Shown here piece by piece: positions 813 through 23,713 of a stretch of DNA of 64,000 nt. The notes beneath the pieces are model-generated. The model was not told the origin of the DNA. It was given only the letters and a program-made list of their open reading frames with translations, and made no database searches. Source of the DNA: an uncultured Actinomycetes bacterium (GTDB taxonomy: Bacteria > Actinomycetota > Coriobacteriia > Anaerosomatales > PHET01); NCBI GenBank assembly GCA_963700665.1, contig CAVOYK010000004.1, forward strand, positions 58,793-122,792, in the 5' to 3' direction. The position numbers and the translations under genes were made by a program. The first letter of the stretch is position 1. Each line of letters starts with the position of its first letter.

Positions 813-1935
813 GAGGGCCGGCTCTTTCGAGCCGGCCCTCCGTTCCTTCTAGCCTGCTTCGTCGTCGCGGTCGGACCGCGCGAGTCAGGTGGGTCTAGTA
901 GGTGATGCCCACACCAGCGGTGCCGTCGCCAGAGACGTGGCACTTGAGGCACAGGCCGTCTTGCGTGGCGATGACGCCGTTGCCGGTGGTGCCGGTGGCA
1001 ACCTTGCCGGAGACGACGCGAGCGTCGTCAGCGTCGGCGGCGGTGGTCAGCCACACGAGCGCGGAGCCGAGGGTCGGTCTTGGGCACGCTGGCGCCAGCG
1101 GCGTCAACGTAGTTGTGCGGGAACGCCGCGCCACCGATGGCGGCGGACTGGGCGTCGTGGCACGCCTTGCAGGAGTTGGCGTCGTTGAACGCGACGGTCG
1201 ACTCGGCGCCAGGAGCGTCCGCCGCCGGTGTAGTACGCGTCGAACTCGCCGTTCTGGTTCCAGCTCGTCGGTCGCCGTGGCGGTCACGCGGTGACCGGTG
1301 ACTGGTCGACGTGGTGCCCAGACCGGTGATGGTCGGGGTCGCACCGAAGGTGTTGACCGCGAAGACGACCGGGTTCGAGGCGTTGTCGTGGCAGTTGGCG
1401 CACAGGTAGCCGGTACCCAGCGAGAGGCCGGTGCCGACGAGAGCCGGGTCGCTCAGGTCGAACATGTCGGCGGTCAGGCCGTTGTAGTTCGCATCGCCAG
1501 GAGCGGCGGCGAGGTCGGTGTTGATCGCATCGTCGATCTCGCGATGAACAGCTTGGACTTGAACAGCGGGAACTCGGATGCACCGGCGCCGTGCGGCGAC
1601 GGGGTGTGGCAGCGCTGGCAACGACCGTGCGGCGAGAGGCTCGATGCCGACTCGGTGTTGATGTTGACGTCGGTGAAGGTCGCCGACTCGCCGTGGCAGA
1701 AGATGCAGCGAACCGGTGGCGAGCGCGTCACCGGTACAGACCGGCGTTGCCGGTCCAGGCGGTCAGAACCTGGCCGCCGGCCTGCGCGCGGTGGACCGCA
1801 TGGCAAACAGCGCACTTGTTGGTAGTCGTGGCGTAGTTGCCGTGCGGGCTCGGGGCGCCGGCGTTGCCGCCGAGGTTCGAGTCCCACTGGAGGTAGCCGG
1901 GGTAGTTGGCGTTGTACGGGCTCAGCGTACCGCTC
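813..1935. repeat. segmental duplication R1, copy a (partner 6299..7415)
   Basis: Long runs of identical nucleotides with scattered 1-nt indels. Example: GTGCGGCGACGGGGTGTGGCAGCGCTGGCAACGACCGTGCGGCGAGAGGCTCGATGCCGACTCGGTGTTGATGTTGACGTCGGTGAAGG is present in both. Confidence 0.8.
815..838. terminator. GC-rich perfect hairpin, terminator-like
   Basis: GGGCCGGCTC-TTTC-GAGCCGGCCC (10-bp stem, 4-nt loop), between the cytochrome stop (895) and the next minus-strand start (803). An identical copy lies at 6301..6324. No clean U-tract. Confidence 0.45.
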
Positions 1936-2066
1936 CAGATGGGGCCGTACGCGAACGCCGTCGCGGCGAACGCGAAGACGAGAACTGCAGCAAGAGCTGC
2001 AACAAACAGGGTCTTCTTCATTGAATGATCTCCTTGTATCAGTCGATTGGTATTCATCTCTTTCAT
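895..2066 (-). CDS. secreted hexahaem c-type cytochrome, type A (frameshifted as assembled)
   Basis: Joined ORFs 1728..2120, 1474..1887, 1028..1621 and 895..1344. Signal peptide MKKTLFVAALAAVLVFAFAATAFA. Six motifs: CAVCH, CIFCH, CQRCH, CANCH, CKACH, CLKCH. Ends CLKCHVSGDGTAGVGITY*. Two in-frame starts have an SD: 2066 (GGAAAGGAGGTG-N5-ATG) or 2021 (AAGGAGA-N7-ATG). At least 3 frame changes. Confidence 0.8.
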
Positions 2067-2123
2067 TTGCGCACCTCCTTTCCGAGACTGAATTCTATGA
2101 GGAGCAAGCGTGTGCTCCAATCC

Positions 2124-3498
2124 TCACAATGCACACAATACGCTCATCAACGTTAATGTGCAATCAAATTCTGCGCCAATCGGCCAGGGCGAGTACCTAC
2201 TCGCGGCCTCATCGGGCGTGAGTTCAGTGTCGGGCTGAACGGAACTGGATGCGACTGCCGAGGCCGCCTGTCTCCTTCGCCGAATACGCTGAACGATGAA
2301 CAGCACGATCAGGATGAGCAGAAGCGCCAATGGTGCGAGACAGGCGCGCAGCGGGCCGGTCAACGAGCGCCGAATCGCCGACGCGGCACTCGGGGCTGCG
2401 GAACCGGGAATCCGAACGATCTGAACGCGGCTGTTTCCGGCATCGGCGACAGCGAACCAGTCCCGCTGCGCGTCGTAGGCGATACTGGATGGATAGACGA
2501 ACTGACCGTCAAGCGCACCGTACTCCCCGTACTTCTCGATGAACGCGCCATCCTCGGCGTTGAAGACCGAGATGGAGAAGTCGAGTGCGTCCACGACCAC
2601 GAGTCTCCCGTTCCCGTCGACCGTGATGTCGGAAGGCAACTGGAGGCGGGCGGGCGCCGTCGTATCGGCGGAAGCGGCCATCGCGGCTCCGCCGGTGACG
2701 TCGCGCTGGTTGGCCGGGGACCCTGTGTCCACGATCCAGATTCTGTCGCCGTCGGGGCTGTACGCGCTGAGACGGTTGTTGTAGGTATCCACCACGTAGA
2801 TCTTGCCGTCGGACCCAAACGCGACGCCATTCACCGTGTCAAACTGGTCGTCGGCCTGGCCCCTGTTGCCCACGAGGCGGACAGGCTCGCCGTTCTCCGC
2901 GTTGATGATGGCGAATCCCGCTGACGACCCAATGGCCAGCCTGTCGTCGAACGCGTCGATGTCAATCGGGTTGGGGAATGCGAAGGTGCCGAGCTGCCGA
3001 GTCGGGTTCTCGTAGACCCTGACCAGGTCGTTGACGGACTCTCCAATGAAGACTCGCTCCTCGAAGCCTATCGCCACGGGTCCGATGCCATCGAGTATCT
3101 TGTCGGCCGGACCGGGTCCAACGGTGCCCACCAATGAGCCCTCAGGATTGAAGCCCATTGCTCCCATCTCGCGATGACGGGTGTCCGTGACCCAGATGGT
3201 CCCTCCGGCCCCTATGAACAGCTCTTGCGGTATGACGAACTGCGACTGCGGCGTGTCCCCCCAGCCGTAGATGGATCTCACCCACTCGATCCCCCCCGTC
3301 TCAGACTGGGGTGCGACACCTTCGCTCGGCGAGATGAGGTTGAGGAGTAGCGCCGTGATCCCGATGAGCGCCAGCACGAGTACGATGACGATGGCCACGA
3401 GGAGCCTGCGGCCGCGGCGCGAGACCCGGCGCGGGGGGCCTTCCTGGCCCGCCGGACGTAGGCGTGCTCTCTGGCGCCGCGTCGATAGTGTCTGTCAT
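2124..3498 (-). CDS. NHL-repeat beta-propeller protein with N- and C-terminal TM anchors (copy 1; one frameshift near the 5' end)
   Basis: ORF 2124..3398 plus fragment 3301..3498 (MTDTIDAAP...). N-terminal TM VAIVIVLVLALIGITALLLNLI. NHL-type blades: GKIYVVDTYNNRLSAYSPDG, GRLVVVDALDFSISVFN, DWFAVADAGNSRVQIVRI. C-terminal TM LAPLALLLILIVLFIV. Co-linear paralogue of 19662..20951. Confidence 0.8.
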
Positions 3499-4279
3499 TT
3501 ACTCGGCTCCGATCTTCTCAAGGCCGGCGAGAGCGGCCTCATCGTCAGGAATGAACTTCAGGGCTGCTCGGTAGTCCCGTTCCGCACCCTTCTTGTCTCC
3601 GGTTTCGGCAAGCAGATCTGCGCGGCGGACAAGCACGTCTGCCGCAGTGGGCTTCCCCTCGATGTACTCATCCAGCGACTTGAGCGCCGCCTTCGTGTCG
3701 CCGAGCTCCACTTGAGACTCCGCCTTGATCAGGAGCGCCGTCCAGAAGTTCTCGTTGATCGGCTCGCCCTTCATCTCGGCCGAGTCCCGCTTCTTGACCG
3801 CTTGTGCGTAGTACTTCTTCAGGTTCGCTCGCACTCTCGTCAGCCGCCTTGATTGCGGCCTCGTGCTTGCCGGTCGCACTGTAGAGCTCAGCTTGGGACA
3901 TGAGGATGTCTTGCGTTGCCGTCTGATCGATCACGCCGCTTGCCTGGTCAATCACGTCCTGGGCCTTGAGATACTGCCGGGTAACGATCAGCGAGTTGAT
4001 GTACGATCGCCAGATCTCGGGGTCCTCGGGGGTCTGCATCGCGGACAACTCGAAGAACCGCAGGTCGCGCTCGGCACGCGTGCGAGGCGCGGTCGGATTG
4101 AAGAAGCCCATCAGCATCGCAGACAGCAGGGCCACCAGGTAGAGCACGACGAGCACACCGGCGCCGATCGCCAGCCAGCGCACGACGGGGTCGCTGAAGA
4201 TCGACGCCCGCTTGCGCGACGGCGGAGGCGGAGGCGTCTGTTCGCGCGGTTCTTGGCTTGTTACCTCATCGTCTGGCAC
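3499..4279 (-). CDS. TM-anchored TPR-repeat protein (copy 1; one frameshift)
   Basis: Joined ORFs 3668..4279 and 3499..3879. SD GGGAGGA before ATG 4279. TM WLAIGAGVLVVLYLVALLSAMLMGF. TPR-like helices. C-terminus DYRAALKFIPDDEAALAGLEKIGAE* parallels 20948..21700. The TAA stop abuts the ATG of the NHL gene. Confidence 0.7.
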
Positions 4280-4421
4280 TGAAGATCCTCCCTGTGGCGA
4301 ATCGAACTGAGGCTTCGACCGGACTCAACGTGCCGAAGCGGCGCTTCGCATCCTAAGCGTAAACGCGATATCGTTCAATGCTGATATCGTGCCAGCAATG
4401 AAGGCAATGTAAGGATTCTTC

Positions 4422-6251
4422 ATGGAGAAGACTCAGGACTCACGCCGCCAACCCGCTCAGCCGATGGTCAGCGTTCGTAGACGCTGCGGCGTGGTGGCCT
4501 CTGTTGGCGTGCGTCGCCGTCCTGCCCCTCAGCAGCTCGCTCACTCTTGGGCTTTCGGGTCAGCCATCGGCCCTCACAGACGACCCCTACAATGTCCCCA
4601 AGCTCATCGTCCTGATTGCTCTTGTATCCCTGTCATCAGTCGCTTGGTTCGTATCGCTGGTTCTCGGCTGGCGGCAGCTCCGCCTCGGCTCTGTCCATGT
4701 GTGGCTTGGCGCGTTCGCCGCGCTCGTCGTGGTGTCGACTGTCTTTGCTCGAGAACCGCTCAGCTCGCTGTTCGGCGCGAGCAGACTCATGACAGGAGCC
4801 GTCACGTGGCTGGCGTGCGCGTGGATGTGCTTTCTCATCGGGCAGCTGGCCGACACAGGGACCCGGCTAATTGAGTTGACCTGGGCGGTCATCGGCGGTG
4901 CGACCGTGCTTGCCGCGATCGTCATCCTTCAAGCGGCAGGCGTCGATCCGCTCTCCACGCCGGTGACACCCGAGAGGCTGTGGACGATCAGGCGAGGCGC
5001 TGCGACTCTCGGCAATCCTGACTACACGGGCCTGTACCTGATCGTCCCCGCAGTCATCACGATCTCGCTCTACTTGTCGGCGAAGAGCCGGACTTCGATT
5101 CTAGCCGGAGTCTGTGGAGCGCTGATCAACTTGGCCGCGCTACTCACGCTCACCAGAGCTGCGTGGCTGGGAGTCTTCGATCGGTCTGGGCGTACTCGTG
5201 GCGACACGCCGCGGTGTAGCCCTTGACAGGCGACGAGCGTACGTTCTCGCGGGTGCAGCTGCTGCTGCCGCGGTTGTGGGTGTGGCAATCGTTGGGCTCC
5301 AGACGTTCCTGCAACGCTTCTCGGCGGCCGGGAAGGGGCTCGACGGACTCAGTTCCGGGCGGATCACGCTGTGGGGCGATGCCCTGCGCATCGTAGCGTC
5401 GAAATCCGCTTCTTGGAACGGGAGCTGATCGTCTCGCCCTCGGGGCGTATGAGGTCCAGACCAACGTGGTGATCGAGGGTATTTCGCGCTACGTGATGCA
5501 GGACCCTCACAATCTGGTGCTGCTGATCGCGGGCCTGTTCGGAATCCCCGCGCTGGTGGTGTTCGTGATCCTGTGCGCGAGAGTAGTCCATGACTCGTAC
5601 GGGATCGTGATCCGCGCTGGCTCCCGGTCCACCGCTATCGTCGGCAGCGTATGCGGGATGGTTTGCGGGCGGAATCGGACTACTTCTAGCGTCAGTGCTC
5701 TCGGTCTACACGGTCTCCGCGATCTTCATACTCTTCCTTGTGCTTGGACTGCTGTCCGCACCCGACGCTCGAAGAGCGCCGTCTGGCGCCGTGGACGCTC
5801 GTGGCAACTGGCATGGTGCTGATTGCAGCCATGGGGGTCGCGTGGTTTGGCTCCGTCTCGAGCCTCGCCGCCAGTCGAGAGGTTGCCCTTTCGCGCGCGG
5901 GCGACAGCAAGTACCACCTTGAAAGGGCCATCGCACTGACGCCCTGGGACGCTCGCACCTACGTCGGCTACTTGTGGAGGAAGATCGGCGCCACGCGCGC
6001 TGTCCTCACCGGGACTGATGTCGCAGCCGCCCGCGATGCCGCCGCCGCACTGGACACCGAGATCAGACTGGCGTCGACACGCTTTCCCCACGATCTGCTC
6101 TTCCATAGGCTGAGAATCGAGCTGCAGCTCCTCATGAAGGACGCCCCGGGATTCCAACCGGAACTGCCTCGAGCAAGCCATCGAAGACGCCTTGTCCGCA
6201 TTCCCGAACGACGTCGAGTTCCTTCAGCGGCAGCGCGAGTACCTGCAGTAG
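4422..6251 (+). CDS. O-antigen-ligase/Wzy_C-like polytopic membrane protein with C-terminal TPR-like domain (multiple frameshifts)
   Basis: Joined plus-strand ORFs 4422.., 4504..5226, 5198..5428, 5466..5822 and 5738... Many hydrophobic helices. Wzy_C-like strings: TLGNPDYTGLYL, LLTLTRAAWLG, SGRITLWGDALRI, QDPHNLVLLIAGLFGIPA. Soluble tail ends FPNDVEFLQRQREYLQ* (TAG 6249..6251). SD AAGGA before ATG 4422. Confidence 0.6.
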
Positions 6252-6298: not shown

Positions 6299-7415
6299 GA
6301 GGGCCGGCTCTTTCGAGCCGGCCCTCCGTTCCTTCTAGCCTGCTTCGTCGTCGCGGTCAGACCGCGCGAGTCAGGTGGGTCTAGTAGGTGATGCCCACAC
6401 CAGCGGTGCTCGTCGCCATTGACGTGGCACTTGAGGCACAGGCCGTCTTGCGTGGCGACGGTGTTGTTGCCGGTCGTACCGGTGGCAACCTTGCCGGCGA
6501 CGACGCGAGCGTCGTCAGCGTCGGCGGCGGTGGTCAGCCACACGAGCGCGGAGCCGAGGGTCGTCTTGGGCACGCTGGCGCCAGCGGCGTCAACGTAGTT
6601 GTGCGGGAACGCCGCGCCACCGATGGTGGAGGACTGGGCGTCGTGGCACGCCTTGCAGGAGTTGGCGTCGTTGAACGCGACGGTCGAGTCGCCAGGAGCG
6701 CCGCCGGCCCGAGTAGTACGCGTCGAACTCGCCGTTCTCGTTCCACGTGTCGGTCGCCATGGCGGTCACGCGGTGACCGGTGACAGGCGACGTGGTAGCC
6801 AAGACCGGCGATGGTCGGGGTCGCGCCGAAGGTGTTGACCGCGAAGACGACCGGGTTCGAGGCGTTGTCGTGGCACTCGGTGCACAGGTAGCCGGTGCCC
6901 AGCGAGATGCCGGTGCCGACGAGGGCCGGGTCGCTCAGGTCGAACATGTCGGCGGTCAGGCCGTTGTAGTTCGCATCGCCAGGAGCGGCGGCGAGGTCAG
7001 CGTCGATCGCGGCGTCGATGCCGTTGATGATCAGCTTCGACTTGAGCAGCGGGAACTTGGACGCGCCGGCGCCGTGCGGCGACGGGGTGTGGCAGCGCTG
7101 GCAACGACCGTGCGGCGAGAGGCTCGATGCCGACTCGGTGTTGATGTTGACGTCGGTGAAGGTCGCCGACTCGCCGTGGCAGAAGATGCACGAGCCGGTG
7201 GCCAGCGCGTCACCGGAGAGACCGGCGTTGCCGGTCCAAGCGGTCAGGACCTGGCCGCCGGCCTGCGGCGCGGTGGACCGCATGGCAAACAGCGCACTTG
7301 TTGGTAGTCGTGGCGTAGTTGCCGTGCGGGCTCGGGGCGCCGGCGTTGCCGCCGAAGTTCGAGTCCCAGCAGCAGGTAGCCGGGGTAGTTGGCGTTGTAC
7401 GGGCCGCTCCAGAAC
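6299..7415. repeat. segmental duplication R1, copy b (partner 813..1935)
   Basis: See copy a. Includes the terminator hairpin and the type-A cytochrome module. Confidence 0.8.
6301..6324. terminator. GC-rich perfect hairpin, possible bidirectional terminator
   Basis: Same GGGCCGGCTC-TTTC-GAGCCGGCCC hairpin as 815..838. Here it lies between convergent genes ending at 6251 (+) and 6381 (-). Confidence 0.5.
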
Positions 7416-8981
7416 GGGCCCGTGCCGTGATTGTTCAGATCGATCGTGTGACACGTGTTGCAGGTCGCGCCCGGGCGGCGTTGGCACGGCACCGTGGCAG
7501 ACGCCACAAGCCAGCCATGAATCCCGACGACGTTGGATCCGTGGCAGTCGTACACGGGGCGACCGGAATATCCGTGTGCGCGGCCTCGTGCGCGCTTCAT
7601 AGCCCGGATGACACGCCCCGCAGATGCTGTCGCCCGTCGCGATGGCGTTGACCACGTCGGGGTCGGTGCTCGTCGTGGCAGCCGGCGCAGTTGTCGTTGT
7701 GCTCGATCACGATGTCGGCGCTGTGGCAGTCAGCGCACAGCGGGTCGGTGAAGCCGGGGTCGTGCACGCGTGTGCGTGCGGCGGGCCGTGGCACGAGGCG
7801 CACGCGGTGTCACCTGCGCCGATGGCCGCCACGACGTCGGATCGGTGCTCGCGTGGCACAGCGAGCACTGGTACTTGAAGTCGGTGCCGAGCGGGTACTG
7901 CCCGTGCTCGGCGGTCAGCTCGGGGTCGTGGCACGGATCGCACCCGGTCGTGGTGCTCAGGTGCAACGTGTCGAGCTCGGCTGTGGTGTGCTGCGGGATC
8001 GCGGGATAGCTCGTGTTGTGGCAGTAGATCGCACGCGGCGCCCACGTGGTCGGAGGCGGGGAAGTCCTCCCGTCCGTCTCGCCGGGGGCATGGCAGCCGC
8101 AGTCGAGCAGTTGACGTGGTGTTGCCGGGCTGCAGGTGGTAGTAGGTCGGCCCGTGACAGTTCGACCATGGAGCAGCTCAGCGCCGGGTCCATCGGGATG
8201 GGGGCGCCACGACGCGCGAAGTTCCAACGGGCGGAAGTTGGTCTGGCGCCCGCCGTCGTGCACGTAGGCCGACGACCGAGTGCGATGCCGGGGCGCAAGT
8301 CGATCGTAGGCGTCCACGCGGATCACCTGGCCCTGCGGCATGCTCGCCGTTGTACGACCTCGACGCCGTCGAGGACGAGCCGCACGTTCACGTTTCCCGG
8401 GCGTGTTGTCGCCGACCGTGACGACCGATCTGGGGACGCGGCACTGCGACCGTGGAACCGACTCGCGGGCACGTACGGTGCTCGACCGTCGGCGGTGCTG
8501 CCACCGTGTAGTTCCACGACGTGTTGTAGACGGTGCCGTTCACGTCGGTGACCTGTGACGGCGATCGTCGTGACCCCGTCGGGCAGGATGCCGTCGGTGG
8601 CACTGCATCCTGACCTGTCGCAGCGTCGGCCGGCCGTGCGAGACGAACGCGGAGTAGTCGGTGCCGTTGATCCACAGCTTGCGGCTCGAGATCGACCAGG
8701 TTGGGGTCGGCGCGCCGGCGTTGGCCTACACACGGATCTGCGTGCTGGCGACGTGTGACGGTCGAGCCGATAGCGGGGTTGTGGTTCGACCAGGTCAGGG
8801 CGTGGGCCGAGCTCGGTGCCGCCATGGCCGCGAGCAGAAGAATCGCGAACGCCGCGAGCAGAAGCAAGACCCCCGCCGAGAATCGGCGACTACCAAGGTG
8901 CTCGACGGCACCCGTGTGCGATCCGAATCTCAAACCTGCCCCCATGCCCAGACGTGCCCCGCGCTCCCGCACGAGGTGCAC
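6381..8981 (-). CDS. large surface multihaem cytochrome, chimeric: signal peptide + Ig-like domains + multihaem module + type-A hexahaem C-terminus (many frameshifts)
   Basis: ORF 8388..8981 gives LLLLAAFAILLLAAMAAPSSAHA, then LTWSNHNPAIGSTV... (Ig-like). ORF 7730..8341 gives IYCH, CDPCH, CSLCH. Fragments 7597..8045 follow. ORF 6534..7655 gives CGACH and CGVCH, then the type-A module CIFCH, CQRCH, CTECH. ORF 5968..6573 gives CLKCH. The last ~370 aa are co-linear and near-identical at nucleotide level with 895..2066. ORF 7244..7600 reads through the junction (CNTCHTIDLNNHGTGPFWSGPYNANYPGYL). Confidence 0.75.
7608..8810. repeat. segmental duplication R2, copy a (partner 16043..17245)
   Basis: The shared N-terminal module of the two large cytochromes. 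Starts ATGACACGCCCCGCAGATGCTGTCGCCCGTCGCGATGGCGTTGAC in both. Identity declines towards the 5' end of the genes. Confidence 0.7.
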
Positions 8982-9009
8982 TGGTACGAACCTACGTGAC
9001 GTTTAGGTT

Positions 9010-10344: not shown

Positions 10345-10361
10345 GTGTTCCTCCGTGTGTA

Positions 10362-13333: not shown

Positions 13334-14419
13334 GATTTCTCGCCGTCCGACGTTCGCTGCGTGCCGACGGCACCACCTGGGTGCACGTGCTTCTCATGGC
13401 AGCCGGTGCAGTCCGAGTTGTCGTGACAGCGTTTGCACAGGCCGGATTGCTCCTTCGAGACAATCGCATGCCTCAAGGTGAATCCGGCAGGGTGTGGCAT
13501 CTGGGTGCCGTGACACGCGCTGCAGAACTGCGTCTTGGTGGCAGGACTCACACTGCGCATCCGCTCGAGCAGCATAGGACGCGTGGACGCTCACGAACTC
13601 TGGCTCATGCGGTATGCCGGCCCCGTGACACTCGGCGCAATCACTTGATTCGTGACACACAGTGCACGTGGAGACATCTCCCATCCCGTGCGTTGTCTGC
13701 CAGTTGACGCCGTGAGTCACACCAAAGGATGCGACACTCACCCGGCTGGCGGCCTGACGGCCCTGATGACACAGATCGCACGCCGTGTTGTCCGACGCCA
13801 TGTGGCATACGAGACACGCCTCCATGTCGTAGGACCGAATCCACTGGGTCGCACTACCGTGAGCTGTCGCGGAGTGACAGTCGGTGCACGACGCGCCCGC
13901 GGCACAAGAGGCGTGGTTCATTCTGATGCCGTTGGAGACGACCACGTCTTGGAGAGCTGTCTCATGGCATGCGGCGCATCGGTCGTCCGGTACTGCTGCC
14001 GCGTCGCGGTTTGCGACGCGGCCGACCTCGAAGTAGGCGTGAAGCGGACGCCGCAGCGCGAGAGCGGCCTCTCCTATCGCGCCTGAGGGAACGTGGCATC
14101 GTCGACACTCCACGCCCGCATGGGGAGACGCTTGCGTCTGCGCTCGGAAGGCGCCGCGATCGTGGCAGGAGGCGCAGGGCTTCGGGCCGATCACCCCGAC
14201 AACGCGCAACACGAGCAGACCCACAACCGCCAGCCCGATTGCCGCCGATACGATCCTGCGTCGGCGACTCGCGGCCACAGCATTCCGCGGGGTGCTGCGA
14301 CCTTGCTCGGAATCTCCGGATTCCACTGAATCAGTTTCGACCATGCCACCCTCTTTGCCGACTCTAGAGACAGTTCGCGTCAGAGGTCCCAGAACCTTCC
14401 GTCGACGCGATAGTGACAC
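13330..14419 (-). CDS. NapC/NirT-like membrane-anchored multihaem cytochrome c, 12 CxxCH (one frameshift)
   Basis: ORFs 13394..14419 and 13330..13575. TM IVSAAIGLAVVGLLVLRVVGVI. Motifs: CASCH, CRRCH, CAACH, CTDCH, CLVCH, CDLCH, CTVCH, CAECH, CESCH, CSACH, CKRCH, CTGCH. Start is 14419 or the internal M at 14344. Confidence 0.75.
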
Positions 14420-14420
14420 G

Positions 14421-15765
14421 CTGGGAGCCGGCTCCCCCCGAAGCCGGCTCCCCTGATCACGAGGTCGAAGTGACCTTCGTCATCGCGAAGTACTAGTGCG
14501 TGAGCCCGATACCGTTGCCCGCACCGTCGCGGTGGCACTTCAGACACTGGCCGTCGTAGGCCTTCTGGTTGGTGCCGGCGGTGTAGGTCAGCGGAGCGCC
14601 GACGCTCGCACCGTAGCCCGACCAGATGCGCGAGCGCGACTCCGGTGGCCGAGGTGGAGCCGTCGAGCGTCAGGTTGGTGGCACCGGTCGGCGTCTGGCC
14701 GTGCGGGAACGTGAAGTTGCCCGCGACGGTGTTGGCCGAGTCGGTCTGGTCGTGGCAGCTCGTGCAGCCGGCGATCGGCGCATAGGAGGCCGCGCCCGGA
14801 ACCGCTGCGAAGGTACCGGCGACGTGACCGGTCTTCGAGTCGCGGTTGTCGTTGCCGCCGTAGCCGAGAGCCTCAGCACCGGTGTTGTCGGTGCGGTAGG
14901 CATTGCCCGACGTGATGCCGGTAGCGTGGTTGCGGTCTTCCTTGATGCCCTTGTCGACGATCGCGTAGGCAGCCTCAGCGTGGCACTCGTCCTCGCCGGT
15001 CGACGGGTTGGAGGGACGACCGCAGGTCAGACCCGCGACAAGCGCGTGGGTCTCGTTGGCGTCCGGAGCCGCGCCGTTGATGGTGATGTCGCCGGCGGCC
15101 GTGGTGGCCATGATCGAGCTGTTCGCGGAGACGAAGCGCTCCACGGCAGCGTCGGTGGCGCCCAGGTCGTCCCAGACGGCGTCGAGGCCGCCGTAGGTGC
15201 CGTCACCCTCGAGGTCGTCGTTGGCAGGATCGTTGAACAGCAGCTTGGAGGCGAAGATCTTGTACTTCGAGCTGTTCGCGCCGTGCGGGTTGGTAGCGTG
15301 GCAACGGCGGGTGAAGCAGCCGTAGCGGTGCCCCAGCTCGTAGCTCGGCTCCGGCGTGTCGCCGGTACCGTCCCAGTAGCCGTCCGCGATGAGGTCAAGA
15401 GCGCTGTCGTTGTGGGGGCCGCCACCGTTGGCGGCGCCGCCGGCGGCGGTCTTGTTGGTGATGGCCGCTACCCGCTGTGCGTCAGTCGCGGCAAGCCATG
15501 CGGCACTGCCGACCGGGTAGAGCGGGTTGGCCGGATCGACCTCTGGCACCCACTCGGTGTCATAGGGCGTCCACGTGACGATCTTGGCCGTGATGGCGGT
15601 GCCACCGGTGTGGCAGCCCGCGCACGTGGCGTCGGAGGTCGGGAGCAGCTTGACGCCGTCCCCTGCCGCACGGTGGACCGAGTGGCACATCCCGCACTTG
15701 GCGGTCGTGGCCAGGTAGTTGGCGTGTGCTCCCGGATTGGTGGGGTTGTCGCCGATCGACCCGAG
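14421..15765. repeat. segmental duplication R3, copy a (partner 17446..18782)
   Basis: Almost identical over ~1.3 kb apart from single-base indels. Covers the hairpin plus the type-B cytochrome module. Confidence 0.85.
14423..14452. terminator. GC-rich hairpin downstream of the large cytochrome gene
   Basis: GGGAGCCGGC-(10 nt)-GCCGGCTCCC. Repeated at 17448..17477. No U-tract. Confidence 0.4.
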
Positions 15766-17392
15766 CGCAGGGCCGCTGTCTCTCGGACCGGGAGTCGTAG
15801 TCCATTTGTAGTAGTCCCGTCTGTATCTGAAGAAGCCGGGAGGGTGAATTCCAGGATCGTGACACGAGCCGCATTTCAGGTTGCCCCCTGCAATGGCGGC
15901 GATCACGCGACCGTCAGTGCTCCGATGGCACGCGACGCAGTCGTCCCCGTGCTCTGCCGACACGTTTGGAGTCGTGGCATTCGCCACAGCCGCCACCTGA
16001 GGGCAATCCGCCATCATGAACAGCCGCGTGGCCCGCGCCCTCATGACACGCCCCGCAGATGCTGTCGCCCGTCGCGATGGCGTTGACGACGTTGGGGTCG
16101 GTGCTCGTGTGGCAACCGGCGCAGTCGTCGTTGTGCTCGACCACGATGTCGGCGCTGTGGCAGTCAGCGCACAGCGGGTCGGTGAAGCCGGGGTCGTGCA
16201 CGCGTGGCGTGCAGGCGGGCCGTGGCACGCCGGCGCAGGCGGTGTCACCTGCAGCCGATGGCCGCCACGACGTCGGATCGGTGCTCGCGTGGCACAGCGA
16301 GCACTGGTACTTGAAGTCGGTGCCGAGCGGGTACTGCCCGTGCTCGGCGGTCAGCCCGGGGTCGTGGCACGGATTGCACCCGGTCGTGGTGCTCAGGTGC
16401 AACGTGTCGAGCTCGGCTGTGGTGTGCTGCGGGATCGGCGGGTAGCTCGGGTTGTGGCAGTAGTCGCACGCGGCGCCCACGTGGTCGGAGCCGGGGAAGT
16501 CCGTCCCGTCGTATCTCGCCGGGCGCATGGCAGCCGCTCGTCGAGCAGTTGATGTGGTGTTGCCGGGCTGCAGGTGGTAGTCGGTCGGCCCGTGACAGTT
16601 GGACATGCGAGCAGCTCAGTGCCGGGTCCATCGGAGGTGGCGCGCACGACGGCGAAGTTCCAGCTGCGCGACACGTGGTCTGCCCGATCCCGTCGGTGCA
16701 CGTAGGCCATGACCGAGTGCGTGCCCGGGCTGCGAAGATCGAACGTAGGCGTCCACCGGAACTGCCCCTGCGGGCGAGCTCGCGTTGTACGACCTGCGAC
16801 GCCGTCGACGACGAGCCGCACGTTCACGTTGCCCGGCGTGTTGTCGCCGACCGTGAGCCCGATCTGCGGACGCGGCATGCGACCGTGGAGCCATTCGCGG
16901 GCACGTACGGTGTGAGCGTCGGTAGGCGGTGCTGCGACCGTGTACGTGCCACGAGTTGTTGTGGACGGTCGCCGCTCACGTCGGTGATCCGTACGGCGAT
17001 CGTCGTCACGCCGTCGGGGAGGATACCGTCGTTGACGATGATGTTGACCGTCTTGCGGATTCGGCTGGCGTGGTGTTGACGATCGGATACTCGGTGCCGT
17101 TGATCCACATGCGGCCGTCGAGCGCACCAGGTCAGGCTCGGCTGCGCCGGCCGTGGCCGTCACGCGGATCTGCGTGCTGGGACTAGTGATGGTCGCGCCC
17201 GGCGAGCGGGTTGTAGTTCGACCAGGTCACGGCGTGGGCGACGGCCGGCAGCGCAACGATCATCGCCGCACAAAGCACCACGAAAGCAGCGAGCAGAGTG
17301 ACGCGGTACTGACGCCGATTCCGGACGACGCGATCGGCATCCCCCCTGACCAGCAGCCTTCTTCCGCCCAAGCCACAGAGCTGAGTTCTCAT
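14493..17392 (-). CDS. large surface multihaem cytochrome, chimeric: signal peptide + Ig-like domains + multihaem module + type-B hexahaem C-terminus (many frameshifts)
   Basis: ORF 17183..17392 gives signal peptide LLAAFVVLCAAMIVALPAVAHA, then VTWSNYNPLAG. ORF 16393..17163 gives Ig-like segments (TVNIIVNDGILPDGVTTIAVRITDVSG in fragment 16824..17108; PGNVNVRLVVDGVA). ORF 15914..16606 gives CDYCH, CNPCH, CSLCH, CADCH, CAGCH, CGACH. ORF 14380..16248 gives CVACH and CGSCH, then reads straight into the type-B module CGMCH, CAGCH, CFTRRCH, CTSCH. The true stop is probably TAG at 14493 (tail CLKCHRDGAGNGIGLTH*, by analogy with 17517). Confidence 0.75.
16043..17245. repeat. segmental duplication R2, copy b (partner 7608..8810)
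   Basis: See copy a. Confidence 0.7.
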
Positions 17393-17445: not shown

Positions 17446-18782
17446 CTGGGAGCCGGCTCCCCCCGAAGCCGGCTCCCTGATCACGAGGTCGAAGTGACCT
17501 TCGTCATCGCGAAGTACTAGTGCGTGAGCCCGATACCGTTGCCCGCACCGTCGCGGTGGCACTTCAGACACTGGCCGTCGTAGGCCTTCTGGTTGGTGCC
17601 GGCGGTGTAGGTCAGCGGAGCGCCGACGCTCGCACCGTAGCCCGACCAGATGCGCGAGCGCGACTCCGGTGGCCGAGGTGGAGCCGTCGAGCGGTCAGGT
17701 TGGTGGCACCGGTCGGCGGTCTGGCCGTGCGGGAACGTGAAGTTGCCCGCGACGGTGTTGGCCGAGTCGGTCTGGTCGTGGCAGCTCGTGCAGCCGGCGA
17801 TCGGCGCATAGGAGGCCGCGCCCGGAACCGCTGCGAAGGTACCGGCGACGTGACCGGTCTTCGAGTCGCGGTTGTCGTTGCCGCCGTAGCCGAGAGCCTC
17901 AGCACCGGTGTTGTCGGTGCGGTAGGCATTGCCCGACGTGATGCCGGTAGCGTGGTTGCGGTCTTCCTTGATGCCCTTGTCGACGATCGCGTAGGCAGCC
18001 TCAGCGTGGCACTCGTCCTCGCCGGTCGACGGGTTGGAGGGACGACCGCAGGTCAGACCCGCGACAAGCGCGTGGGTCTCGTTGGCGTCCGGAGCCGCGC
18101 CGTTGATGGTGATGTCGCCGGCGGCCGTGGTGGCCATGATCGAGCTGTTCGCGGAGACGAAGCGCTCGACGGCAGCGTCGGTGGCGCCCAGGTCGTCCCA
18201 GACGGCGTCGAGGCCGCCGTAGGTGCCGTCACCCTCGAGGTCGTCGTTGGCAGGACTCGTTGAACAGCAGCTTGGAGGCGAAGATCTTGTACTTCGAGCT
18301 GTTCGCGCCGTGCGGGTTGGTAGCGTGGCAACGGCGGGTGAAGCAGCCGTAGCGGTGCCCCAGCTCGTAGCTCGGCTCCGGCGTGGTGCCGGTACCGTCC
18401 CAGTAGCCGTCCGCGATGAGGTCAAGAGCGCTGTCGTTGTGGGGGCCGCCACCGTTGGCGGCGCCGCCGGCGGCGGTCTTGTTGGTGATGGCCGCTACCC
18501 GCTGTGCGTCAGTCGCGGCAAGCCATGCGGCACCACCGACCGGGTAGAGCGGGTTGGCCGGATCGACCTCTGGCACCCACTCGGTGTCATAGGGCGTCCA
18601 CGTGACGATCTTGGCCGTGATGGCGGTGCCACCGGTGTGGCAGCCCGCGCACGTGGCGTCGGAGGTCGGGAGCAGCTTGACGCCGTCCCCTGCCGCACGG
18701 TGGACCGAGTGGCACATCCCGCACTTGGCGGTCGTGGCCAGGTAGTTGGCGTGTGCTCCCGGATTGGTGGGGTTGTCGCCGA
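17446..18782. repeat. segmental duplication R3, copy b (partner 14421..15765)
   Basis: See copy a. Confidence 0.85.
17448..17477. terminator. GC-rich hairpin (copy of 14423..14452)
   Basis: Same stem sequence, downstream of the cytochrome stop at 17517. Confidence 0.4.
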
Positions 18783-18954
18783 TGCCGGACACACCGTTCG
18801 GAGATGCGGTGCCAGGCGGAATCACCGCTGGCTTGGTCCACTGGTAGTAGCTCGTGGAGTGTGCGAAGAACTTGCCCGTTGTCGCGAAAGCACTCGCTGC
18901 GAAGACAAAGGTCAGCGCGAGTACCAAGACGACAACAAGAACCGTTCGCTTCAT
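17517..18954 (-). CDS. secreted hexahaem c-type cytochrome, type B (frameshifted as assembled)
   Basis: ORFs 18229..19065 and 17517..18452. SD AAGGGGGA before ATG 18954. Signal peptide MKRTVLVVVLVLALTFVFAASAFA. Motifs: CGMCH, CAGCH, CFTRRCH, CTSCH, CLKCH, plus C-x12-CH (CGRPSNPSTGEDECH). Ends CLKCHRDGAGNGIGLTH*. An extra C at ~18256 relative to the paralogue at ~15230 breaks the frame. Confidence 0.8.
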
Positions 18955-19260
18955 GGATCCCCCTTGTAGTCGATGTGCAGTCTGTCCTTGCTTGCTCGTG
19001 CACCCCCTCTCCGCAAGGAGCCTGAGGCCTTTGCGCCGCGTACCCCCACGCGCCGATCTGGCCATTCACTATTTGCAGCCCGCCTATGCGGCGGACGAGC
19101 CGGCAAACCAGTCAGTGCACTCCGTCTCGCCAAGAACTCCGGAGATTGAGGTGGACTCACCTTTGGCGGGCATAGGCGTTCTCAACGCCTCTTTCGCCCA
19201 GGACAAGGCGAGACCGCCTCAAGGCCCCGGAAGGCTTCGACGGGTCCTACGTGTGGCGCT

Positions 19261-19408
19261 TTGTGGGTTTCTGGGCGCGGCGATCGCGATAGCTGATCTG
19301 CGGTATCTTGCCGCGCGCTGTCGTGAGTCAGTGCTCGTTGTGGGTTTCTGGGCGCGGCGATCGCGATAGCTGATCTGCGGTATCTTGCCGCGCGCTGTCG
19401 TGGGTCAG
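19261..19408. repeat. two-copy tandem direct repeat, ~71-nt unit, 77-nt period
   Basis: TTGTGGGTTTCTGGGCGCGGCGATCGCGATAGCTGATCTGCGGTATCTTGCCGCGCGCTGTCGTG at 19261..19325 and again at 19338..19402, each followed by (A/G)GTCAG. Lies in the 700-nt gap between the NHL gene and cytochrome B. Confidence 0.8.
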
Positions 19409-19661
19409 AACTTCAGGTTTTCAAGCTCACGCCAACCAGTGTTGGCGCCGAGCCATGCGAGCCCACCCTGTCCCCTGTGCTGCCGATCCCCCTGAAGCGT
19501 TTTGAGCACCCACGAAAATGTGCAGTTACGGTGTACTCCTCAATGTTGGCTAATGCAACCCTAATCTTGGAATATTTTCTGAGTCATCCCATAGGAGGAT
19601 GCCACGCGGTGCCTGACCTGTTCGTTGCTCGCCCCGCAAGTGCCCCTCACTTGGATCCTCA

Positions 19662-20951
19662 TCACTGGGGTCCAAGGTCGGTCGCCGTTTCCTCCTTCAG
19701 CCCCACCTCGCCTGTCTCGTCGCTCACCCCGTGCCGACGAGCCCGGCGCGTGAGGACGTAGACGGCTATCGCGATGAGGATGAGCAGAAGCGGGAATGCG
19801 CATGCTCGCACGGGGCCGGATAGCGCGCGGCCCACCGACGCCGCAACGCCCCCTGCGCCGGAACTCGAGCCCGGGATCCGCACGATCTGGACTCTGCGAT
19901 TGAGGGCGTCGGCCACCGTGAACCAGTCCCTGCCCGCGTCATAGCTCACGCTCACCGGATAGAAGAACTGGCCGTCCTCGGCACCGACGTCGCCATACTT
20001 GCCGATGAGCTTGCCCGTCTTGGGATTGAAGACCGCCATGGTGCAGTCGTACATGTCGATGACGACCACCCGGCCGGCGCCATCCACAGCAAGCCCAAGT
20101 GGAAGCTGCAGGGCATCCGCTCCCTTCAACACCGCGTCCTTCGGTGGCTGGGGCACCAACATACCGCTCGATGTCTCTGCGGAGTTCGCGGGGGCGCCTG
20201 TCCTGATGATCCAGCGCCGCTTGCCGTTCGGCTCGTAGGCGCTCAAACGATTGTTGTAGGAGTCGGCGACGTAGATGCTTCCGTCGGGTCCAAACGCGAT
20301 TCCGTGTACGTAGTCGAACTGTTCGGGACCCTTCCCCCGCGTCCCAAAGACTCCTATGGGCTTACCCTGCTTGTCGAGCACTGCGAATCCGGACACCGAG
20401 CCGACCGCGATTCGGTCGTTGCTCACCGCGACCGAGACTGGCTGGGGCACGTTGAACGATCCCGCTTCCTCGCCATTCGTGCCAAGCACGTGAACCCGAT
20501 CGAGCGACGTTTCGCAGATGTAGACGCGTCGGTCCGGTCCCACTGCGATCCGGGAAGGCGCGCTGATCGGCATCGACGGATCGATCGATTCGAGCGACCC
20601 AAGATACCGGCCGTCGGGACCGAAGTGCGTAATGCTCGAGCGGCGCTTCACATCCGTGACCCAGATGGTCCCGGCCTCGCCGGGAACCGCGACTTGGGTC
20701 TGGCCGAAGAGGTCTTCGGCCCTGTCTGAGGTCCCGTAGATCGACCGAATCCACTCCACTCCGGCTGTGTCGACGGGTTCACCGTCGGAACCAGCCGTCC
20801 TCGGCACCCGGAGAGCGCTGTAGAGCAGGTAGGCGGAGAGTCCGAGCAGGAGGATCAGGACAACCAGTACGAGCGCGAGCGCACGTCGTGCTCGACGGTT
20901 CTTCACGGGTGGAGCCGCATCGCCTGTCGGCAGAGCGGTGGTGTCGCTCAT
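19662..20951 (-). CDS. NHL-repeat beta-propeller protein with N- and C-terminal TM anchors (copy 2, intact)
   Basis: 429-aa intact ORF. TM ALALVLVVLILLLGLSAYLLY. Blades: GSIYVADSYNNRLSAYEPNG, GRVVVIDMYDCTMAVFN, DWFTVADALNRRVQIVRIPGS. C-terminal TM AFPLLLILIAIAVYVL. Confidence 0.85.
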   Translation of the reverse strand: MSDTTALPTGDAAPPVKNRRARRALALVLVVLILLLGLSAYLLYSALRVPRTAGSDGEPVDTAGVEWIRSIYGTSDRAEDLFGQTQVAVPGEAGTIWVTDVKRRSSITHFGPDGRYLGSLESIDPSMPISAPSRIAVGPDRRVYICETSLDRVHVLGTNGEEAGSFNVPQPVSVAVSNDRIAVGSVSGFAVLDKQGKPIGVFGTRGKGPEQFDYVHGIAFGPDGSIYVADSYNNRLSAYEPNGKRRWIIRTGAPANSAETSSGMLVPQPPKDAVLKGADALQLPLGLAVDGAGRVVVIDMYDCTMAVFNPKTGKLIGKYGDVGAEDGQFFYPVSVSYDAGRDWFTVADALNRRVQIVRIPGSSSGAGGVAASVGRALSGPVRACAFPLLLILIAIAVYVLTRRARRHGVSDETGEVGLKEETATDLGPQ

Positions 20952-21700
20952 TCTGTGACTCCAATCCTCTTCAGTCCCGCCTTCGCTTCCTCGTCATACG
21001 GAACGAACCTCAGCGCCTCACGGAAGTCCCTCTCGGCGCCGACCTTGTCGTTCAGTCGTGCCTTGGCATTGCCTCGATCGATGAGAACGTCGGACGCCGT
21101 CGGATTCTCGTCTATGTAGATGTCGAACGCGGCGACCGCTTCCTTCAAGCGGCCTAGTTCGACCAGAGCGTATGCCTTGACCAGAGCGGCGTTGTCGTAG
21201 TCTGCGCCGTAGCTCAAGCTATCGGGTGGGGCCGAGGCCTTGTAGCCCTTCATGGCCTTGTCTGCGAAAGACACGGCTTCGCCGTAGTCCTTTCGCGCAC
21301 TAAGCAGCCTTGCCTCGGCAAGATCGAGGTCGGAGAGCGGCACGGTGGTATCCACGCTCGCTCGAGCCTGGCTGAGCGCCAGCCGCGCGCCGGACAAGTC
21401 ACCTGTGGCGACAAGGGCCTGGATGTATGGAGCCCAGGTCTCGCCCGTGGCCTGTGCGGCGTTGAGTCGGGCGGAGGCCTCCAGAAGTTCTCGCTCGGCC
21501 ACCGACCGCGGTCCGGTGGGGGCCATCAACCCAGTCGCAAGTACGCCGACAACGGTCGCAAGAAAGAGAATCGTGAGACCGAGCGCTGCGTACAACATGG
21601 CTCGGACAACAGGGTCGGCAAGAAAGGCCCACTTGCGGGGCCGCGACTCCTCGGACTGATCGAGCGGACCGTCGGGAACCTGCGCACTAGCACCACTCAT
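20948..21700 (-). CDS. TM-anchored TPR-repeat protein (copy 2, intact)
   Basis: ORF 20948..21973. Probable start is the ATG at 21700 (MSGASAQ, SD AGGAGGA upstream). TM AMLYAALGLTILFLATVVGVLATGL. Ends DFREALRFVPYDEEAKAGLKRIGVTE*. The stop overlaps the NHL start (ATGA). Confidence 0.75.
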   Translation of the reverse strand: MSGASAQVPDGPLDQSEESRPRKWAFLADPVVRAMLYAALGLTILFLATVVGVLATGLMAPTGPRSVAERELLEASARLNAAQATGETWAPYIQALVATGDLSGARLALSQARASVDTTVPLSDLDLAEARLLSARKDYGEAVSFADKAMKGYKASAPPDSLSYGADYDNAALVKAYALVELGRLKEAVAAFDIYIDENPTASDVLIDRGNAKARLNDKVGAERDFREALRFVPYDEEAKAGLKRIGVTE

Positions 21701-22109
21701 GGCATCCTCCTGCTTGATAGCTCGCTGCCTTGGGTGCCGGCCCAAATCTCGAAGCACTGAATATCGGCGGCTGGAGCCCTCTGCTGAGGTTCGCGACATG
21801 GGGCGCCGAAACCTGCAAGCCGAGCCTCGCAGAAGGCGTCTCCACAAAATCAATACATACTGCTCCGCCACGTTTCGAGTACCGGCGGCCCTGTCCCGCG
21901 GGCGACGAATACTGGACCCAGATCCAGGCGCACTCGGAGGTGGGGCTGTTGCGCGACGTGAAGCAAGCCACAACGAGCGGCAGCCCAGCGCGAGGAGAGA
22001 CGGGCTGCGAAGGCTTCTGACTTCTCGCTGACCAAGAACGCGTCCGGCGGCGGCTCGCCGCCGCTCCCCTCAGTGAGACGCGTAGAGAGGATCGGTGGTC
22101 AATCCCCGA

Positions 22110-23713
22110 CTAGTCCTTGGGCTCGCCGCGGACCGGCGAGTCGGCCTCCGATGGAAACGCCCTTGAGCTGCCACCATCTAGGGAGACATCACTCAGGCCC
22201 GGCTCGATGTCGCGAGCCCCAGCAGATCGGGACACAAGCGCCCCGGGCAACAGAGCGAAAACGAAGGGGATGCACGCATACAGCAGCGGTACTACAGCCG
22301 CGCCCCAATAGTTCTTGGTGATTCCAGTCCGGTCGTCCACCGCGGTATTCGCGACGAAGAGGAATGCGGCAAGCGGCACCGTTGTGCTTAGAAGCACTAG
22401 CAGCCTCAGCTGCAGCTCGGGTATCAGGGCCGCGCCGAGCAACCCCAGAGCCGCGAGTGCCAGCGCGAACCAACCACCGCTACCAAGATGGTCCGTCGCG
22501 TAGCGCAGTGCATTGAGTACCCAGGCCAAACCGCCTGCGCGGAACTGGGTGTACGTCGATGAGGGGTCGACCACGCTGCGTGCCAAGGAGTAGTGGATCG
22601 CATAGGACAGCCCGACAACGCTCAGACCCAGCACCCATGACAACACTCTGAACCTGCGCTCGATGCCCGCGACCAGCGCTGCACGAGAGCAGGCCGGCGA
22701 TAGGGATGAACACGAACGTCTCACGCAGCAGCGTCGCGACCACTGCCAGCGCGACTGCGGCAACGACATATGGCTTCCACCGCACAGATTGGCAAGAGAC
22801 CGCATACGCTGCAAAGCTCATCAGAGCGAAGGGAGCGCCCCACGCCTCGGCCGTGAAGACGGTGAGTTGAATGGAAAAGTACAGGAAGTACGCCGAGAGC
22901 GCTGCGGACGCGGGCAGCACAAACGGAAGGCGCACAAGCCCGGAGGCTGAGCGGCGCGACCGACACGATGCCCAGTGTCGCAAGCGATACGAACACGAGG
23001 GGGACCCATCGAGCGTCCGGGAAGCGCAGCCCACAGTTGGAAGAGGTATGGCGACCTGATGTTCGTGACCGAACTCGGCGCGACACCGCCGCTCGGAAGC
23101 AGAAAGAACCCATCGCGAAAGCTCTCGTAGTAGGGTCGACCGTCGCGAACACTCGAAACGATGCCCATGAAAAGCAGCGTTGTCGTCGTTCTCGTAGGCA
23201 GGCGGCAGATTCCCATCCAGCTGATCGACGAACGACGGCAAGCGCAACCCAGTCGTCACATCGGTCGTCTCCCAACTGCTGACCGTGAATGTCGTGAGCC
23301 AGAGGTTGCCCACGATCACGATCAAGGCGAACCAGAACGCCAAGCGCGCACTGACCGGCGCGCGCGACACAAGCTGCCGGACTCCCGCCGCCACGCCGGC
23401 CGCCACGAGAACCGAAAGCACCGCGTAGACGAGCCTCACCTGCGGATCGACGATGAAGAAGGAGGTCGCTGGGCCCACGAGCGCCGCCAAGGCGGCACCG
23501 ACAGCTGCAACAAGAGCAGCATCAGTGACCGAGCCGACGAGAAGAGCCACGACAATGCCGCCGATCAACGCCGGCCTGCGCCCAAGGAACCCACAGCAGC
23601 AGGCCAGCCGAGGCGGCCGACATCGCCACGGTGCACGCCAGCAGCGCGGCGACTGCTCGCCACACGCGCGCGGACGCGGTCGACCGCAGTGCTAGGGCAA
23701 CGCGCTCCGCCAA
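22110..23713 (-). CDS. large polytopic integral membrane protein, possibly a GT-C-fold glycosyltransferase (several frameshifts)
   Basis: Joined ORFs 23522..23713, 22480..23568, 22821..23216 and 22110..22814. More than 10 hydrophobic segments. Loop strings RDGRPYYESFRDGFFLLPSGG and LLRETFVFIPIAGLL. Family assignment is a guess. Confidence 0.5.

Follow-up and report, generated by a model that had tools for sequence, protein, structure and literature searches.

The window analysed here is a stretch of 64,000 nucleotides from an uncultured bacterium of the order Anaerosomatales (assembly GCA_963700665.1, contig CAVOYK010000004.1, positions 58,793 to 122,792 of the forward strand), with a G+C content of 64-69%. 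Its minus strand carries, in two copies, a gene order in which a membrane-anchored protein with tetratricopeptide repeats (TPR) is followed by a membrane-anchored NHL beta-propeller and a secreted hexahaem cytochrome, and each copy of this module runs on into two NrfH/ImdcA-like membrane cytochromes with 12 and 11 haems. The TPR-NHL-hexahaem set is conserved, and as yet uncharacterised, in uncultured actinobacteria that resemble iron reducers. All genes named in the initial annotation of the window lie where, and on the strands on which, it had placed them, and the duplication of the TPR > NHL > cytochrome order on the minus strand is real; what that annotation overlooked is that the two membrane cytochromes and two large fusion cytochromes also belong to the module. 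Read from high to low coordinates, the minus strand holds serA and an aminotransferase gene, a polytopic membrane protein, TPR2, NHL2, cytochrome B, the large cytochrome B', the multihaem cytochromes MHC12 and MHC11, leuA and leuC and, after leuC, the large cytochrome A', TPR1, NHL1, cytochrome A and a partial MHC12-like gene, with a plus-strand Wzy_C/TPR gene between A' and TPR1. The features of the two modules are listed below; loci of related genomes have L numbers and homologues of the hexahaem cytochromes P numbers.

3..848, minus strand: module 1 MHC12-like membrane multihaem cytochrome, cut by the window start and frameshifted; open reading frames (ORFs) 3-413 (5 CxxCH) and 429-803 (transmembrane segment); matched to the MHC12 family by phmmer (140 bits)
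895..2066, minus strand: cytochrome A, secreted, with signal peptide and 6 CxxCH; at least 3 frameshifts; three frames yield pieces with 53-63% identity to P0316, an intact homologue
2124..3499, minus strand: NHL1, with N-terminal transmembrane segment, NHL beta-propeller, C-terminal transmembrane segment and basic tail; one indel; Pfam NHL, 60.2 bits
3500..4279, minus strand: TPR1, a TPR protein with a single transmembrane segment; one frameshift near 3870; Pfam TPR_14 and TPR_2 matches
6381..8981, minus strand: large cytochrome A', with signal peptide, Ig-like and multihaem region; C-terminal domain at 93-99% DNA identity to cytochrome A; DNA repeats D3, D6 and D9-D12; match to P0316
12144..13340 (approximate), minus strand: module 2 MHC11, an NrfH-like 11-haem cytochrome with two transmembrane segments; one frameshift; 59-65% identical to L066 MHC11
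13333..14419 (approximate), minus strand: module 2 MHC12, an ImdcA/NrfH-like 12-haem cytochrome with one transmembrane segment; one frameshift; 56-60% identical to L066 MHC12
14496..17392, minus strand: large cytochrome B', with signal peptide, Ig-like and multihaem region; C-terminal hexahaem domain at 99-100% DNA identity to cytochrome B; DNA repeats D1, D2 and D5
17517..18954, minus strand: cytochrome B, secreted, about 478 residues; 4 CxxCH, a CX4CH and a CX12CH; reading frame broken near 18256 and near 17694-17719
18955..19661, minus strand: spacer of 708 nucleotides (nt) between NHL2 and cytochrome B, in which a 77-nt sequence is duplicated in tandem (19256-19408, DNA repeat D16), one stretch is richer in AT and a strong Shine-Dalgarno sequence is present
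19662..20951, minus strand: NHL2, an intact, double-anchored NHL propeller of 429 residues; Pfam NHL, 56.6 bits; 713 homologues
20948..21700, minus strand: TPR2, a TPR protein with a single transmembrane segment; ATGA overlap onto NHL2; 59% identical to the L066 TPR protein

The two TPR-NHL pairs are paralogous along their whole length. NHL1 and NHL2 align end to end with 43% identity over 369 residues (E 3e-100), and the strings that the initial annotation had picked out as shared (GIEWVRSIYG/GVEWIRSIYG, GTIWVTD and VQIVRIPGS) all fall within this alignment; TPR1 and TPR2 are co-linear across the frameshift in TPR1 (31-44% identity, E 2e-21 and 6e-11) and both end in the F(I/V)P(D/Y)DE tail. 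The proposed translational coupling of the pair is also present in both copies: the TAA stop codon of TPR1 abuts the ATG of NHL1 (TAAATG at 3502-3497), and TPR2 and NHL2 share ATGA at 20951-20948, a 4-nt overlap that recurs in relatives L006, L019, L021, L066, L068 and L070. Both propellers score well above the Pfam NHL (PF01436) cut-off of 20 bits, and the six-bladed families DUF5128, SGL and Vgb_lyase give sub-threshold matches only. The repeats of TPR2 exceed the cut-offs of TPR_14 (33.5 bits, cut-off 23.5) and TPR_2 (30.5 bits, cut-off 27), and a fragment of TPR1 reaches 27.4 bits for TPR_14. In the family alignment the NHL proteins are of about 430 residues and consist of a conserved Arg-rich N-terminus followed by a transmembrane segment, the propeller, and a C-terminal transmembrane segment with a basic tail; the conserved residues of the propeller are those of its structural repeat motif, and a GP(L/V)RAC-x2-P motif in the C-terminus is kept only in the closer clades. 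A sorting signal made of this C-terminal GPLRAC motif, the transmembrane segment and the basic tail was considered and rejected, the only match being to PVV-CTERM at 15.6 bits (cut-off 27), with no sortase-type gene in the neighbourhood. Among the TPR homologues, two have faint precomputed matches to TPR_CcmH_CycH (PF23914); a haem lyase gene (CcsBA/ResBC) is not a constant neighbour in the module neighbourhoods examined.

The two secreted cytochromes had been described as six-haem proteins, and the description stands for both: cytochrome A has six sites of the ordinary CxxCH type, and cytochrome B, repaired by reading three frames together with its near-identical second copy and intact homologues (L003, L004), has the sites CGMCH, CAGCH, CFTRRCH, C-X12-CH, CTSCH and CLKCH. 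A and B are distant homologues, the A-type protein P0316 matching the B-type profile over its full length (E 4e-16). In an alignment of 66 members of the family, as in a further family alignment, the six Cys-pair/His sites and six further His residues are invariant or at least 90% conserved; with six conserved distal His for six haems, the alignment therefore predicts that all six haems are probably bis-His coordinated. The proteins have a cleavable signal peptide and end about ten residues past the last haem site, with no anchor visible. The family is small, with only 397 members at E <= 0.001 in 1.84 billion representative proteins, and in many of these the hexahaem domain forms the C-terminus of a protein of 600-1050 residues. 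Searches against all chains of the PDB, with single sequences by phmmer and with the 66-sequence profile, gave no match to a cytochrome filament at E <= 10. Foldseek comparison with the PDB returned noise only for a first structural model (pLDDT 63.5) and zero matches for a second (pLDDT 83.9, pTM 0.78), the models being haem-free and Foldseek being weak on coil-rich folds. Membership in the families of OmcS, OmcE, OmcZ or the archaeal nanowire cytochromes is thus unsupported by sequence or by Foldseek fold comparison. Cytochrome B is set apart from NHL2 by a spacer of 708 nt, as compared to 150-290 nt between NHL and cytochrome genes in relatives; the two halves of its tandem duplicate (19256-19331 and 19333-19408) are 96% identical, and the spacer is likely to be the cytochrome's own promoter region.

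MHC12 of the related locus L066 matches the inner-membrane decahaem cytochrome ImdcA of Thermincola over 313 residues (E 8e-17, 24% identity). The NCBIfam NrfH model matches the two MHC families at E 9e-5 and 5e-10, with 39.6 bits set against a cut-off of 134; because this lies so far under the equivalog cut-off, MHC12 and MHC11 are classed, by sequence, as ImdcA-like and not as NrfH equivalogs.

In both modules the free hexahaem cytochrome has a second copy at the C-terminus of a much larger protein. At the DNA level, positions 813-1886 recur at 6299-7368 (93-99% identity) and positions 17475-18556 at 14451-15529 (99-100% identity), and the two large genes share a further repeat between 7602-8207 and 16037-16645 (88-97% identity). 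The fusion junction of B' lies inside one uninterrupted ORF (14380-16248), the similarity to the large cytochromes begins where the mature part of the free cytochrome starts, and A' and B' start with similar signal peptides. The same arrangement is found in L066, an independent assembly, where a hexahaem cytochrome of 465 residues is followed by a protein of 1041 residues (77% identical to B') that consists of an N-terminal non-haem region, a stretch in which the majority of the other haem sites lie (the whole protein has 16 CxxCH) and a C-terminal domain that shares 66% identity with the 465-residue protein. An assembly artefact as the source of the near-identical copies is ruled out by this two-gene arrangement in L066 and by within-genome identities that vary continuously among relatives. 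Those identities, of the free gene with the domain fused to its large neighbour, range from 73 to 100% at the DNA level (the window and L002, L008, L021, L025, L026, L027 and L066), and in many cases gene and domain resemble each other more than either resembles its orthologues; the range of identity seen across relatives thus points to repeated gene conversion as the process that would keep the two homogeneous. The N-terminal parts of A' and B' (7600-8981 and 15914-17392) have in common repeated Ig-like segments of the pattern W-N-(Y/F)-x-V-(A/V), together with a series of CxxCH motifs; they look lineage-specific, since most related loci, apart from L002, have no homologue of them.

Single-base indels interrupt most of the module genes, and a break in NHL1 sits in a run of C at 3433-3438. 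When aligned to intact orthologues, leuA (10385-11955) shows at least four frame changes and leuC (9082-10344) two. Since these biosynthetic genes are as broken as the cytochrome genes, pseudogenisation is ruled out and we read the frameshifts of the window as assembly errors, which would fit an unpolished long-read assembly; the closest related loci come from long-read metagenome bins.

How general the module is was examined by a pattern scan of 185,579 species genomes, which yielded 65 loci. Sixty-four are from uncultured Actinomycetota, labelled Coriobacteriia or Anaerosomatales or mislabelled 'Eubacteriales', and the remaining one (L065) is a non-actinobacterial outlier. Profile searches on six-frame translations recovered 69 NHL modules in the 64 actinobacterial loci, several of the apparent misses in the counts that follow being artefacts of the position window. 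The TPR gene lies directly upstream of NHL in at least 60 of 66 modules and the hexahaem gene directly downstream in at least 54 of 61; a cytochrome of the family occurs within 2.5 kb of NHL in 58 of 61, and the MHC12-MHC11 pair follows in 42 of 51. Exactly six haem sites are present in 37 of the 41 partner cytochromes that are intact. Look-ups in the reverse direction, starting from the distant hexahaem homologues P0316, P0337 and P0258, returned the TPR-NHL-hexahaem-MHC-MHC order in all three cases. The pair is thereby supported as a specific, conserved partner of a secreted hexahaem cytochrome, as the initial annotation had suspected; far from being usually found without cytochromes, it stands alone, among these loci, only in the outlier L065. 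In many genomes there is more than one module; such modules are divergent and each has a TPR-NHL pair of its own, and in L028 and L048 different NHL clades are paired with different cytochrome clades in the paralogous modules. Over the set, NHL and cytochrome distances are correlated (Spearman 0.68, a value reached in 0 of 500 permutations), a correlation that is confounded by shared phylogeny.

Two polytopic membrane proteins border the modules:

4422..6251, plus strand: Wzy_C (O-antigen-ligase-like) protein with a C-terminal TPR region, divergently encoded, polytopic and frameshifted; 37-47% identical by blastx to proteins of L027, L032 and L031
22110..23713, minus strand: polytopic membrane protein of a rare family without a name, frameshifted; 30-37% identical to mem486 and mem496 of L066

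Pfam gave no match on the broken window fragments of either protein. For the first, the intact homologues in L027, L032 and L031 match Wzy_C (PF04932) at 59-70 bits (cut-off 31.7), plus TPR_19, and through these homologues only, the Wzy_C-like/TPR label of the initial annotation holds. Its label of GT-C-like for the second protein could not be verified: no Pfam family matched 13 members at E <= 1, the PDB profile search gave no match, and the 11 homologues of the family that exist in 5.8 billion proteins carry no Pfam domain. Neither protein is the constant part of the module that a polytopic membrane enzyme had been supposed to be, as a Wzy_C gene occurs within 10 kb in 25 of 64 loci (about 40%) and the second family in 2 of 64, which places the 22110-23713 protein outside the module core. 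In relatives the Wzy_C genes are often accompanied by genes for a Wzx flippase, GT2 and GT4 glycosyltransferases, PMT_2 and DegT/PglF-type sugar enzymes. In the close relative L066 (4335-7282) the family of the second protein has two members in tandem, paralogues of 486 and 496 residues with 51% identity, between an aminotransferase gene and serA.

The wider surroundings are biosynthetic. The modules of the window are embedded among leuA, leuC, ilvBNCD and serA (9076-11955 and 23807-31886), as are those of L010, L021, L066, L068 and L069; this setting of branched-chain amino-acid and serine biosynthesis recurs even in distant relatives, the L068 module lying between leuC and leuD. Farther along the minus strand, at 56059-61665, is a second and unrelated cytochrome cluster, in which four multihaem ORFs (7, 4, 6 and 5 CxxCH) are joined by an NrfC-like 4Fe-4S protein (61072-61665) and, at 60124-61047, a membrane subunit that resembles NrfD (89 bits); it likely encodes a quinone-interacting redox complex. 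Another membrane-tethered propeller, a minus-strand protein at 32635-33816 with a single transmembrane segment and a weak match to PD40 (WD40-like beta-propeller), is unrelated to the NHL family. An Rfam scan of the window gave no match.

Taken as a whole, the module is very probably an extracellular electron-transfer (electron-export) unit of a monoderm actinobacterium. This context, already proposed in the initial annotation, agrees with the ImdcA homology and the NrfH-like membrane cytochromes, and with the Fe(III)-reducing habit of cultured relatives such as Parvivirga hydrogeniphila, a Gram-positive, obligate Fe(III) reducer, related at the level of the order, that encodes 17 multihaem cytochromes. 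For the TPR-NHL pair itself the reading that we favour, with a probability of roughly 0.55, is that of a platform on which the anchorless hexahaem cytochrome docks or is assembled: a monoderm has to retain such a secreted protein by some means, and the outward-facing, translationally coupled TPR-NHL pair is the obvious candidate. Under such an arrangement, MHC12 and MHC11, with their NrfH/ImdcA-like N-terminal parts, would take electrons at the cytoplasmic membrane, and the hexahaem cytochrome, exported by the Sec route, would be the distal element. The TPR and NHL proteins, made in a fixed ratio by way of translational coupling and both tethered on the outer face of the membrane, would capture this cytochrome and keep it in register with the membrane cytochromes. 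The large cytochromes, with an Ig-like or adhesin-like N-terminus and some 10-12 extra haems, would attach to this platform or stack by way of the hexahaem domain at their C-terminus. Glycosylation of the exported proteins or of the wall is the probable task of the Wzy_C, Wzx and glycosyltransferase genes nearby.

Several considerations weigh against this reading. The gene content, the conservation, the topology signals, the homology to ImdcA and the six conserved haem sites are matters of observation; the physical interaction of TPR, NHL and cytochrome, as well as the direction of electron flow and the glycosylation, are what we infer from them. The correlation between NHL and cytochrome distances is confounded by shared phylogeny. 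NHL2 and cytochrome B may not be co-transcribed, because the 708-nt spacer with its likely promoter separates them. Both NHL and TPR are generic interaction scaffolds whose folds carry no functional signature, and the NrfH-type matches of the membrane cytochromes remain far below the curated cut-off (39.6 as against 134 bits). Respiratory quinones have not been detected in the cultured relatives, a point that bears on the electron donor to the membrane cytochromes.

A bolder reading would have the hexahaem cytochrome polymerise head-to-tail into a haem wire that spans the wall or extends beyond the cell, in the manner of OmcS, OmcE or CwcA, with the TPR-NHL pair as the base of polymerisation and the large cytochromes as its tip or cap. 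We consider this possible and rather unlikely, and the same applies to its fuller form, in which the protein is the subunit of a new class of haem filaments, unrelated in structure, which cross the wall of actinobacteria. These would be assembled on a base of the double-anchored NHL propeller and the membrane-anchored TPR protein and capped by large adhesin-like cytochromes, inserted by a C-terminal copy of the subunit that gene conversion keeps matched to it; if true, this would be a Gram-positive cytochrome nanowire system. The gene set does parallel that of the OmcE nanowire clusters, and there is a precedent in CwcA of Thermincola, a hexahaem protein encoded near ImdcA and proposed to form a polymer through the peptidoglycan. 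The subunit is without an anchor, and in larger proteins the hexahaem domain is always C-terminal (P0238, P0241, P0242, P0244, P0256, P0308, P0317 and the 1041-residue protein of L066) and homogenised with the free subunit. Polymerisation, however, is not readable from sequence; neither sequence nor profile matches OmcS, OmcE, OmcZ or the archaeal nanowire cytochromes in the PDB, and even the confident model (pLDDT 83.9) drew no Foldseek match. Parvivirga makes pili-like appendages only on ferrihydrite, which would suit a filament, but at 0.8-0.9 nm these are thinner than any cytochrome filament.

Less likely are the three readings that place the TPR-NHL pair or the cytochrome in some other process. 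If the pair served maturation, a CcmI/NrfG-like TPR protein and the NHL propeller would be dedicated chaperones that help the hexahaem apoprotein, with its unusual CX4CH and CX11-12CH sites, to fold or to acquire its haems, and would stay outside the finished conduit. CcmI and NrfG are indeed membrane-anchored extracytoplasmic TPR proteins that handle apocytochromes, an NrfG-like TPR protein belongs to the Uet cluster, two TPR homologues give the faint TPR_CcmH_CycH matches noted above, and many partner cytochromes have two long-spaced haem motifs. We nevertheless hold this to be improbable, as cytochromes with CxxCH sites only (cytochrome A of the window and those of about 20 clade 1 modules) still keep their own TPR-NHL pair, the haem lyase is not a constant neighbour, and the TPR matches are generic, those of CcmI/NrfG type falling under their cut-offs. 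It is more improbable still that the pair serves the surrounding glycan or wall genes (Wzy_C, Wzx, GT2/GT4, PMT_2, DegT), in wall remodelling for instance, with the cytochromes as mere neighbours. Such genes flank many modules, and six-bladed propellers of the NHL, SGL and Vgb types can be enzymes, NHL2 having weak matches to Vgb_lyase and SGL; the conserved residues of the NHL family, however, are structural, glycan genes are found in only about 40% of loci as against a nearly constant presence of cytochromes, and the outlier L065 is the sole locus with the pair and no cytochrome. Most improbable of all is a catalytic hexahaem protein, a reductase of soluble substrates fed by NrfH-like partners in the style of Nrf or Otr rather than a wire. 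The NrfH-like parts of MHC12 and MHC11 would accommodate it, but with a conserved distal His available to each of the six haems every coordination site is taken, neither CxxCK nor any other catalytic motif occurs, searches of Pfam, NCBIfam and the PDB show no homology to NrfA, Otr or HAO, and partners with 11-12 haems are typical of wires.

The passage of electrons through the thick wall of monoderms is poorly understood, and NHL propellers shadow the extracellular cytochromes of Geobacter, Desulfovibrio and Tenderia in a role that has never been put to the test. The module offers a barrel-free, stripped-down version of such systems, consisting of a strictly conserved trio of a membrane-anchored TPR protein, a double-anchored propeller and an anchorless hexahaem cytochrome without a match among solved structures. 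Because the lineage includes cultured Fe(III)-reducing members (Parvivirga, Anaerosoma), a docking or assembly role is directly testable, and since the lineage occurs widely in metagenomes from the subsurface and from sediments, the module may prove useful as a marker for actinobacterial iron or electrode respiration.

The homologues of 4422-6251 match a family that takes in WaaL ligases, Wzy polymerases and PglL/PilO O-oligosaccharyltransferases, and several add C-terminal TPRs; a monoderm is without the lipid A core that is the target of WaaL-type ligation, Wzy_C is found in only 25 of 64 loci, and the gene is assigned here to the family and not to one of its three activities. For the module itself, the OmcE nanowire clusters of the Desulfuromonadia (Geobacter, Desulfuromonas, Geoalkalibacter) provide the closest parallel known. 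They always carry beta-propeller (NHL) lipoproteins, and the literature on them bears out the mention, in the initial annotation, of NHL or beta-propeller genes beside the filament cytochromes of Geobacter. Like the module, they combine two multihaem cytochromes (one of OmcE's putatively quinol-oxidising), membrane-tethered NHL propellers and a small secreted multihaem subunit, and genes for GT2/GT4/GT39 glycosylation enzymes and for TPR proteins often come next. They differ in belonging to diderms, with a large beta-barrel and lipoprotein propellers, whereas the propeller of the monoderm module is anchored by transmembrane segments at both ends and none of the module neighbourhoods examined has a gene for a large outer-membrane beta-barrel, as would be expected for a monoderm. 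In the module, moreover, the coupled membrane-anchored TPR protein is obligatory, and the subunit has six haems as opposed to four in OmcE, with no detectable similarity in sequence or fold.

The ImdcA-PdcA-CwcA-OcwA system of Thermincola shares with the module a monoderm host and, in MHC12, a homologue of ImdcA. For its hexahaem CwcA, whose gene is near that of ImdcA, a passage through the wall, perhaps in polymeric form, has been proposed; CwcA is likened here to the module cytochrome by haem count and by the ImdcA neighbourhood. The literature compared describes no NHL or TPR partner for Thermincola, and the module in turn has no OcwA-like nonahaem terminal reductase. Propellers of the NHL type also occur among the extracellular multihaem cytochromes of the Uet cluster (UetH/I, in Candidatus Tenderia/Gallionella) and of the Desulfovibrio ferrophilus clusters (DFE_0451/0463), where they are presumed to stabilise cytochrome complexes and where, in Uet, an NrfG-like TPR protein is encoded nearby. 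These, however, are porin-based conduits of diderms with different cytochromes, in which the propellers are not double-anchored and the fixed TPR-NHL coupling is absent. Built around a cytochrome family that has no match among solved structures, the module is best regarded as a monoderm variant of the propeller-assisted extracellular cytochrome systems of diderms.

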